From the NCBI GenBank assembly GCA_050693695.1, contig JBOGWM010000282.1:1-51794 (forward strand): a stretch of DNA of 51,794 nucleotides, in the 5' to 3' direction. The stretch is from Actinomycetota bacterium. Its GTDB lineage: Bacteria; Actinomycetota; CADDZG01; JAHWKV01; JAOPZY01. Every line of letters starts with the position of its first letter. Position 1 is the stretch's first letter. Under the pieces are notes generated by a model. That model made no database searches, had not been told where the DNA came from, and saw only the letters and a list, made by a program, of their open reading frames with translations. This document shows, in pieces, positions 15,764 to 17,107 of this stretch. The position numbers and the translations under genes were made by a program.

Positions 15764-17107
15764 ATGCAATCATTGGCGGAGATTCTGGAGCCGGCAAGGG
15801 CCGGGGGTCGTACCCGGGACCGGGAGGTGGGCGCTTCCACCGCTCCCCGCAAGCCCGGGGTCCTGCAGCCATGGTTGAGAGCGCAATCGCTGAATGTCAC
15901 TCGCCATGCGGCAGCCCTGCGTCCCTTCCGTAGGGATGAGTTCGGGCGGGACGCGGCGGCGCCCACGGAGGGCCATCTCCAGGCGGTCAACGAGCTCGTC
16001 GGTTCCCTGCGGGGGGACCTTCTCGGGCTCACCGGGAAGGTCTCGCAGGCTGTGGAGGCGGCCACTCGGAACCCGACCTCCCCCCACCTCCAACGAGTGG
16101 TACGGGAAAAGGAGCGAGCCCACCGATGGGTCCTGGCGATCGAGCGCATCTGGGACTTCTACTTCGAGCTGTTCGGCCAGCGCCAATCCCGCTTCGCCGA
16201 CTGGCTGCTCTCCTGCGACCGGATCGCCCTCGACTGCTATCAGGTCGCGTACCGGGGAATCGGCACGGCCAAGAGCATTCCCGCCCCGCCGCCCTTCTCC
16301 TACATGCGCACCGGGTTCTCTCCGGCCACCTTCCGGCGGGGCATCCCGCTCCGCCGCCTGGGGCGTCAGCTCAATCCCTTCCCGCTCATCCAGCTCCCCT
16401 ATCACCGCCTGGTCAACCCCTGGACGCTCGGCGCGGTCCTACACGAGGTCTCGCACAACCTCCAGAACGACTTGGGACTGGCCCGAGAGATGCCCCGGGC
16501 CATCGGCGAGCGGCTGTCGCGGGAGGGATGTGGTCCGCTCGTCGCCTCCACGTGGAAGCGCTGGAACCGGGAGCTGTTCGCGGACCTGATGGGGTTGCTG
16601 CTGGGAGGCCCCGCCGTCGTCGGCTCGCTGATGGACGTGGTCGGCCGCTCTCCCTCCACGGTGCTCGCCTATTCCCCCTCCGCCCCCCATCCCACCCCGT
16701 ACCTGCGCAGCTTCATCAGCATCGAGGCCCTGGCGCGGATGGGCTTCGGGGAGCATGCCCGGCAATACCGCCAGCTCTGGGAGCGCATATATCCCGACCC
16801 CCGCGCCGGAAACATCCCCGAGACGCTGCTGGACACCTTCCCGATGGCCAATGAGCTGGTCGTCGATACGGTCTGCTACCGGCGCTACGCCACCCTCGGC
16901 AACAGGAGCCTCTCCGAGGTCATCCAGTTCGGTCCCAAGGATCAGCAGATGATCGAGGAGGCCGCCCGCCGCCTCGCCGCCCGCACCGATCCGGGCGTGG
17001 TCCCGGAGCGGTTCCTGATCGGGGCGGCCCGGTTCGCGCTCGACCGCCGCCTGGCGCGCCCGGGGGTCATCACCGAGCACTTCTACCGAGAGCTGGCGAG
17101 GAGGTAG
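15764..17107 (+). CDS. Putative zinc metallopeptidase (gluzincin-like HExxH...ExxxD), otherwise orphan
   Basis: HEVSH at residues 227-231 (nt 16442-16456) and ELFAD at residues 270-274 (nt 16571-16585). There is no signal peptide or TM segment. The SD is GAGGATGA. Confidence 0.65.
   Translation: MQSLAEILEPARAGGRTRDREVGASTAPRKPGVLQPWLRAQSLNVTRHAAALRPFRRDEFGRDAAAPTEGHLQAVNELVGSLRGDLLGLTGKVSQAVEAATRNPTSPHLQRVVREKERAHRWVLAIERIWDFYFELFGQRQSRFADWLLSCDRIALDCYQVAYRGIGTAKSIPAPPPFSYMRTGFSPATFRRGIPLRRLGRQLNPFPLIQLPYHRLVNPWTLGAVLHEVSHNLQNDLGLAREMPRAIGERLSREGCGPLVASTWKRWNRELFADLMGLLLGGPAVVGSLMDVVGRSPSTVLAYSPSAPHPTPYLRSFISIEALARMGFGEHARQYRQLWERIYPDPRAGNIPETLLDTFPMANELVVDTVCYRRYATLGNRSLSEVIQFGPKDQQMIEEAARRLAARTDPGVVPERFLIGAARFALDRRLARPGVITEHFYRELARR

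Follow-up and report, generated by a model that had tools for sequence, protein, structure and literature searches.

Gluzincins of clan MA(E), such as thermolysin (M4) and neprilysin (M13), hold their metal with an HExxH motif and a glutamate on a later helix, with an aspartate four residues behind that glutamate, and the two motifs are separated by about 20 residues in M4 and about 60 in M13. More generally, the catalytic fold of the zincins is a mixed beta-sheet with an edge strand above the active-site helix, and the enzymes of peptidase family M48 (HtpX, BepA, Ste24 and their like) are membrane or periplasmic. A further zinc protease, confirmed experimentally, is KPN_02809 of Klebsiella, a homologue of YpfJ (PMC3269727). 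Here, we examine a gene on a stretch of 51,794 nucleotides from an Actinomycetota bacterium (GenBank assembly GCA_050693695.1, contig JBOGWM010000282.1, positions 1 to 51,794), called the window throughout. This gene, C in a series of consecutive plus-strand open reading frames lettered A to H, covers positions 15764-17107 and encodes protein P0001 (protein C below), which an initial annotation made from the sequence alone had described as a gluzincin-like metallopeptidase. From sequence comparison, we conclude that the gene C family is best regarded as an unnamed family in its own right, whose site is of the gluzincin type and which appears to be nearest, at a distance, to the YpfJ type and not to M48. 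The logic of its active site is known from the gluzincins. As a family, it has neither a name nor a structure, and it is very widespread and occurs in two undescribed cassettes.

The reading frame given by the initial annotation and its placing of HEVSH at residues 227-231 and ELFAD at residues 270-274 were borne out by the sequence, and HEVSH is the sole HExxH of the protein. In 200,000 shuffles of protein C, an HExxH arose in 1.2%, and an HExxH with an ExxxD within 20-80 residues in 0.13%, and the conservation of the two motifs is a stronger argument than this rarity. It was assessed in two alignments, one of 38 full-length relatives with identities to protein C down to 23-28% and a mean column identity of 27% (A2), and one of 61 sequences that joins the close subfamily with a distant subfamily of about 25% identity (A3). 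Only 16 columns are invariant in A2 (R140, D152, P177, R192, P212, H227, E228, H231, W264, A273, D274, G282, P310, R315, W339, and A425), and E270 is conserved there at 90% or more; in A3, H227, E228, H231, E270, and D274 are all invariant, as are H309 and P310. Across the 349 full-length family members collected, 348 have HExxH and 338 keep the pair HExxH-(33-43)-ExxAD, the 11 exceptions being mostly apparent frameshifts or Ala-only variation. Of the 338, 315 have a spacer of exactly 38 residues, and 330 show an HP within 70 residues behind ExxAD. The initial annotation had staked its case on the conservation of HExxH among homologues, and the motif pair is indeed kept down to about 25% identity. 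As a separate observation, some relatives carry N-terminal extensions of 150-300 residues (P0122, 646 amino acids; P0136, 827; P0140, 512), and P0136 is the only long member without HExxH.

Since both the presumed catalytic glutamate E228 and the aspartate of ExxxD stay invariant together with the ligands to about 25% identity, the pattern is the one expected of a working hydrolase and not of a binding relic. Judged from these sequences, protein C is probably an active zinc peptidase. It would be a cytoplasmic zinc-dependent endopeptidase, in which H227, H231, and E270 would bind the metal, E228 would act as general base, and D274 would orient a histidine ligand. The invariant H309, about 80 residues downstream, may help to stabilise the transition state, which makes it a candidate transition-state-stabilising or fourth active-site residue; it recalls His231 of thermolysin and His711 of neprilysin. 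Protein C thus has the ligand logic of the M4 and M13 enzymes, with HExxH followed on a later helix by E270 and, four residues on, by D274. It differs from them in its motif spacing of 38 residues and in a predicted fold that is almost all-alpha, and neither sequence comparison nor Foldseek detected a similarity of protein C to them.

The initial annotation had further called protein C an orphan without recognisable similarity. This stands for the curated libraries and for the PDB, where a sequence search (phmmer and profile hmmsearch) returned only coiled-coil noise from the N-terminal helices, and does not stand for protein sequences at large, where thousands of homologues occur in about 10 phyla. 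A word-indexed search found >3100 clusters (90% identity) homologous to protein C, the best 120 of which are all 68-78% identical to it and carry no Pfam domain, and every family hit for which the source gives a name is a "hypothetical protein". With phmmer over 1.84 billion representatives at 50% identity, 1570 proteins were found at E <= 0.001 and 789 at E <= 1e-10. Close copies of gene C were retrieved from 272 genomes (one genome per species) with two N-terminal conserved blocks as patterns; the best 80 are 60-76% identical, and these 80 underlie the locus counts given below. The groups represented are the Chloroflexota, Actinomycetota (including Streptomyces), Acidobacteriota, Cyanobacteria, Planctomycetota, Alpha- and Gammaproteobacteria, Deinococcales, Binatia, and others, about 10 phyla in all, with up to 76% identity between members from Chloroflexota, Acidobacteriota, Cyanobacteria, and Streptomyces. 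The genome to which the window belongs (2.53 Mb, 97.5% complete) has one copy. A family present in hundreds of species of about 10 phyla is therefore absent from every curated library searched and from the PDB. Four intermediate members (P0146, P0148, P0159, and P0182; 31-34% identical) end in basic tails of 40-150 residues rich in Arg, Pro, and Trp, and protein C has no such tail.

To place the family among known peptidases, A2, A3, and a 148-sequence family alignment (famQ) were each compared by hhalign with alignments of four zincin families built from genome hits. The YpfJ-like family PF04228 (15, later 44 sequences) was the best match with every query alignment, at scores of 38-47 and probabilities of 38-78% with the larger alignment and 17-75% with the smaller. 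It was followed by PF01435 (M48; 30 sequences, score 22-34, probability 1-21%), PF13485 (Peptidase_MA_2; 23 sequences, score 21-24, probability <=2.2%), and PF13699 (eCIS_core, the PVC-metallopeptidase; 21 sequences, score 16-21, probability <=1.6%). Controls, consisting of 15-20 column shuffles and a reversal of the template, scored 10-22, and recognised zincin families compared with one another scored 25-41; the score for PF04228 is therefore as strong as the likeness between recognised zincin families. With A2 and famQ, the match is one 59-column stretch over residues 221-287, in which HExxH falls on HExxH and ExxAD on ExxAD. Sub-threshold Pfam matches to PF04228 were also found in 4 of 38 family members (best E 0.0046). 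On profile comparison, homology to PF04228 thus appears to lie above background and below the level usually taken as proof. In both families, HExxH is followed by a short helical spacer, ExxAD, and then a hydrophobic or Gly-rich stretch. The YpfJ-like proteins differ in their spacer (25-31 residues vs 38), in their length of about 290 amino acids, and, in the example from locus L088, in a hydrophobic N-terminal segment, whereas protein C is a soluble protein of 447 amino acids with a 130-residue helical N-domain of its own.

The same comparisons bear on the idea that protein C is a divergent member of M48. The motif pair HExxH ... ExxAD is common to both, and A2 reached a score of 33.5 and a probability of 21% against the M48 alignment, but hhalign left the ExxAD motifs unpaired, and M48 was weaker than PF04228 throughout (1-21% vs 17-78%). 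Moreover, the spacer is 62-79 residues in the 30 M48 sequences as opposed to 38 in protein C, PF01435 has no match to protein C and finds other loci only in its genome, and protein C lacks the transmembrane segment or signal peptide that a membrane or periplasmic enzyme would have. Membership in M48 is thus very improbable, and we rejected it on the missing profile match, the spacer, and the weak alignment without ExxAD pairing. Kinship to PF13699 (no profile match, hhalign probability <2%) and to Peptidase_MA_2 (no match in the genome, hhalign probability <=2.2%) was rejected as well.

An AlphaFold2 model of full-length protein C, built with A3 as input, has a mean predicted local distance difference test (pLDDT) of 86.2 and a predicted template-modelling score (pTM) of 0.82. 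Its only strands are two short ones, 178-182 and 208-212, the second of which lies directly ahead of the HExxH helix; two helices follow that helix, then comes the helix with E270 and D274, and the remainder is helical. With a strand before the HExxH helix and with the third ligand and the aspartate one turn apart on a later helix, the modelled arrangement is, at the level of secondary structure, that of gluzincins. The reading of the initial annotation as a gluzincin-type metal site is supported by three things: the motif pair kept in 338 of 349 members, the location of both motifs on helices in the model, and the alignment of both motifs with PF04228. Residues 168-447 were also folded alone, to keep the N-terminal helices from masking a zincin match, which gave a pLDDT of 84, a pTM of 0.81, and an all-alpha model without strands whose first 45 residues are of low confidence. 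The most conserved blocks of the family sit in the N-terminal domain, namely WDFYFELFGQRQ, with the invariant R140, and CDRIALDCY, with the invariant D152.

What protein C might act on is suggested by its neighbours. The initial annotation had proposed it as the processing enzyme of the two modular proteins encoded directly before it, and the gene order agrees: gene C begins 60 nt behind the end of gene B, and A and B stand upstream of C in 77 of the 80 loci. Beside a 52%-identical relative of C on a low-G+C metagenomic contig, there are likewise two upstream proteins with acidic N-terminal parts, a ...DEFLGG... motif, and basic amphipathic stretches. A junction logo drawn from 86 sites in 55 A/B-type proteins of 39 loci is very sharp, with Glu at 84-100% at every second position from -12 to 0 and Gly or aromatic residues between the glutamates. 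The consensus reads (E-x)6-E-[GS]-E-E-F-[LF]-[GR]-x-[IL] and is followed by a Gly/Ala-rich, Arg-rich amphipathic segment. Protein C itself is basic (pI 10.3, net charge about +18, 62 K+R vs 44 D+E). Judging from these sequences, the alternating Glu ladder could lie extended in a protease cleft, with its acidic face towards the basic protein C, in which R140, R192, and R315 are invariant.

We propose the following mechanism. Protein C would be the constant protease of a horizontally spread cassette that comprises A-B-C-D-E-F, a variable effector, an M20 peptidase, and an amidohydrolase, and its basic surface, with several invariant arginines, would bind the glutamate ladder of A and B. The small helical protein D probably binds C and holds it in check. 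On activation, C would cut A and B at the EEF[FL] junction or close to it, where the acidic block meets the cationic Gly-rich amphipathic segment, and the cut would part the cationic, probably membrane-active segments from the acidic stretches that mask them. Once free, these segments would act on the membrane and let the peptidoglycan-binding effector, which has no signal of its own, reach the wall; as pure speculation, in cassettes that have the M20 peptidase, it may break down the acidic peptides so released. The purpose could be cell-envelope attack or programmed death. Taken as a whole, with C as a gluzincin-type processing protease of an undescribed conflict-type cassette that cuts A and B, we regard this proposal as plausible, its prospects falling slightly short of even. 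A probable zinc protease with five candidate active-site residues would in any case offer an experimental entry to an undescribed operon, and its function is directly testable.

Several results weigh against this proposal. No curated peptidase model reaches its threshold with protein C, which found no match in Pfam, NCBIfam, and PADLOC scans and stays below the gathering score of the PF04228 hidden Markov model. In six-frame searches of the genome, PF04228 had no match, gene C included, PF13485 had none either, PF01435 matched six other loci and not gene C, and PF13699 matched contigs C19 and C206 and again not gene C. The hhalign probabilities for PF04228 are moderate and depend on the alignment (17-38% with A3). 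The models are almost all-alpha, unlike the mixed alpha/beta core of zincins, and Foldseek found no peptidase with the full-length model in the PDB and BFVD (best E 0.38-0.43) and only helical-bundle and membrane-protein noise with the domain-only model in the PDB; the best E across both models was 0.4-0.7. This blindness of Foldseek against the PDB may be due in part to PF04228 itself having no solved structure, as none was found for it. By hydropathy, no protein of the cluster shows an export signal; protein C, for which the initial annotation had also noted the lack of a signal peptide, reaches a maximum Kyte-Doolittle value of 0.30 (12-residue window, first 46 residues) and has no clear transmembrane segment. 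Finally, the conservation is stricter than is usual for a simple processing protease: with 60-76% identity across phyla, the C-terminal part of protein C is exactly 280 residues long and free of indels in all 78 loci examined from about 10 phyla, which suggests additional constraints, of which a place in a multi-protein assembly would be one. Strictness of this unusual degree hints at either (i) many interaction surfaces or (ii) a recent and wide horizontal spread.

The same strictness would fit the alternative that protein C is a metal-binding chaperone, adaptor, or structural subunit without proteolytic activity, which in an assembly with D, E, and F would grip the ladders of A and B or catalyse some other hydrolysis at its HExxH site. 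An all-alpha fold without a detectable peptidase neighbour would fit such a role, as would the equal conservation of gene F. Against it stand the invariance of E228 and of the ExxxD aspartate alongside the ligands and the fact that the family nearest to it in the remote comparisons is one of peptidases whose activity has been demonstrated, and we hold a non-proteolytic role to be distinctly unlikely.

The features of the cassette are collected in Table 1. The gene order A-B-C-D-E-F is fixed across the 80 loci, and the three loci without A and B are L010 and L057, in which C lies no more than about 210 nt from where the locus begins, and L073, which is rearranged. In L073 (8001-10593), fragments of F and of the amidohydrolase gene come immediately after C, and A, B, D, and E are missing; the locus looks like a decayed copy of the cassette.

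Table 1. Gene C, its parts, and its neighbours in the window. Occurrence is from tblastn searches of the window's neighbour proteins against the 80 loci, in which gene C itself is present in 80/80.
Feature	Position	Strand	Occurrence or basis
150-aa LuxR/GerE-type helix-turn-helix protein, divergent, upstream of gene A	13048-13500	-	
Gene A, 293 aa, alternating acidic (E-x)n blocks and cationic amphipathic segments; candidate substrate	13980..14861	+	77/80 loci
Gene B, 259-aa paralogue of A; candidate substrate	14924..15703	+	77/80 loci
Shine-Dalgarno-like GAGGA, 7 nt ahead of the gene C ATG	15752..15756	+	read from sequence
Gene C, 447-aa HExxH/ExxxD protein (P0001)	15764..17107	+	open frame, 447 codons and stop
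Residues 1-33, variable N-terminus, low AlphaFold confidence (pLDDT 38-53)	15764..15862	+	gapped in alignment A1
Residues 34-165, helical N-terminal domain (helices 34-51, 69-102, 106-141, 145-165)	15863..16258	+	model and alignments
Residues 168-447, catalytic/C-terminal part (putative)	16265..17104	+	280 residues in 78 loci
HEVSH, residues 227-231, helix 223-236; predicted zinc ligands H227/H231 and catalytic base E228	16442..16456	+	invariant in A2 and A3; helix from model
ELFAD, residues 270-274, helix 268-281; predicted third zinc ligand E270 and D274 (Asp of gluzincin ExxxD)	16571..16585	+	alignments and model
HPT, residues 309-311; H309 and P310 invariant across both subfamilies	16688..16696	+	A3 alignment
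Gene D, 181-aa helical acidic protein; candidate partner or regulator of C	17111..17656	+	73/80 loci
Gene E, 605-aa acidic protein with C-terminal IPT/TIG-type Ig domains	17671..19488	+	69/80 loci
Gene F, 375 aa, family not known, 54-79% identity, as conserved as C	19585..20712	+	66/80 loci
Gene G, 489-aa PG_binding_1 protein with His-rich C-terminal domain; variable effector-like slot	20775..22244	+	no match in 80 loci
Gene H, amidohydrolase_2 protein, closes extended cluster	22355..23107	+	34/80 loci

Gene D begins 3 nt after the stop codon of gene C in the window, and the gap between the two is 2-7 nt in 63 of 72 loci, so the genes are probably translationally coupled and their products likely to interact. 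Protein D has a sub-threshold Pfam match to the four-helix plant invertase/pectin-methylesterase inhibitor (PMEI) family (E = 2.4e-5, 24.9 bits vs a cut-off of 29), which would suit a helical partner of C that resembles an inhibitor. Gene F has no sequence relative in the PDB. The G+C content at third codon positions of gene C (0.87) is in line with that of the other genes of the window, whose overall G+C content is 66.8%. The divergent regulator-like protein upstream of gene A has the EpsA-type regulators as its nearest NCBIfam family and no receiver domain. No description of the gene C cassette was found in the literature searched, and PADLOC has no model for any of its proteins.

The part of the cassette that varies lies between F and H. 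In other loci (L004-L080), this slot is filled by Het-C+OmpA, trypsin+OmpA, Endonuclease_NS_2, or Het-C proteins, and in many loci the slot protein is followed by a conserved M20 peptidase of about 470 amino acids and then by the amidohydrolase_2 protein. In L005, L018, and L048, which still have A, B, and C, the slot is empty and F leads directly into H. An M20 peptidase of the cluster type is missing from the window, and its sole homologue in the genome, on contig C11, is 36% identical. Het-C and OmpA modules have been listed as toxin domains (Zhang et al. 2012, PMC3482391), and a hydrolase that varies between loci and is joined to a peptidoglycan-binding module marks a slot for effectors or toxins. 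The suggestion of the initial annotation that protein C could equally be an effector is disfavoured by this arrangement, as C ranks among the top two proteins of the cassette for conservation, with an indel-free C-terminal part, and the variable slot lies elsewhere, after F.

A second cassette emerged from the distant subfamily, which is about 25% identical to protein C and comprises 224 clusters found with P0316 as query. Its loci come from metagenomes (L081-L086, L169, and L170); in 7 of 7 loci examined, from several phyla, the gene is directly followed by two CHAT genes (PF12770, caspase-like) for proteins of about 420-460 and 460-600 amino acids, and the hydrolase gene near this module varies by locus (PLDc_2, Peptidase_M10, trypsin, or Peptidase_C25). 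Genes of the A/B type are not found beside the HExxH gene in these loci. CHAT proteins with effector-associated domains are typical of conflict systems (Kaur et al. 2020, PMC7159879), and no description of a module of HExxH/ExxAD and two CHAT proteins was found in the literature searched. A search for hidden CHAT homologues in genes E and F of the close subfamily (phmmer --max against seven type-2 CHAT proteins) gave no match better than E = 0.4, and this candidate was rejected.

The distant subfamily raises the alternative that protein C is an active zinc peptidase that acts elsewhere, for example by activating or releasing the variable effector, E, or F, or on foreign (phage) proteins as the sensor or trigger of a defence, in parallel to the CHAT-linked subfamily, which may process or control its two neighbouring CHAT proteases. 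With two CHAT genes and no A or B beside the distant relatives, the ancestral partner need not have been A/B, and both cassette types have variable effector slots. In the close subfamily, however, A and B accompany C in all but three loci, two of them at a locus start and one rearranged, the strong positive charge of C suits the conserved poly-Glu junction, and the effector slot is empty in three loci that retain A, B, and C. A substrate other than A and B is therefore unlikely in our view, if by no means negligible.

A constant partner that occurs in two cassettes, each with a swappable hydrolase, points to a protease that regulates or triggers conflict or cell-death systems, and the distant relatives, as fixed partners of tandem CHAT proteases, suggest a general role for the family in controlling such cassettes in bacteria. 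In its widest form, which we advance tentatively and regard as somewhat doubtful, the proposal would make protein C the founding member of an undescribed family of gluzincins, with about 1570 clusters at 50% identity, that provides two different, horizontally mobile conflict cassettes with their constant trigger protease, unmasking the A/B pieces in one and controlling the CHAT pair in the other. If this were true, the unmasking of A and B would permeabilise the cell and release or activate the swappable effector (a Het-C-like lipase or nuclease, a trypsin-like protease, or an endonuclease), and the result would be a cell-death or toxin-release pathway initiated by a metalloprotease, like caspase-gasdermin systems in logic and built from unrelated parts.

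Two groups of known systems invite comparison at the level of the cassette. The first is that of the PVC-metallopeptidase (PF13699), which releases polymorphic toxins (PMC3482391) and is likewise an HExxH domain that forms the constant part beside highly variable toxin domains, including Het-C and OmpA-type modules. It differs in that no similarity extends past the HExxH turn, in that protein C stands alone, unfused to a toxin, and in that the gene C cluster has no phage-tail genes. PF13699 (DUF4157) matches were found elsewhere in the same genome (contig C19, 5132-5365; contig C206, 2558-2791 and 3550-3747), and the genome probably encodes cargo toxins of a phage-tail-like injection system outside the window.

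The second group is that of pore formers activated by a protease. In bacterial gasdermin modules with an adjacent caspase-like protease (bioRxiv 10.1101/2021.06.07.447441), a dedicated protease gene stands beside a membrane-active part joined to an inhibitory part, and the A-B-C cassette is similar in system logic only. The same restricted likeness holds for the precursors of eukaryotic antimicrobial peptides, in which an anionic propiece and a cationic peptide combine a potentially membrane-active and an inhibitory part. Protease-triggered mechanisms such as those of gasdermins and caspase-like systems are of current interest in the field of bacterial conflict. A and B are not homologous to gasdermins, and the predicted protease is a metalloenzyme and not a Cys or Ser protease; relatives of C, too, adjoin genes for caspase-like proteases of the CHAT type.

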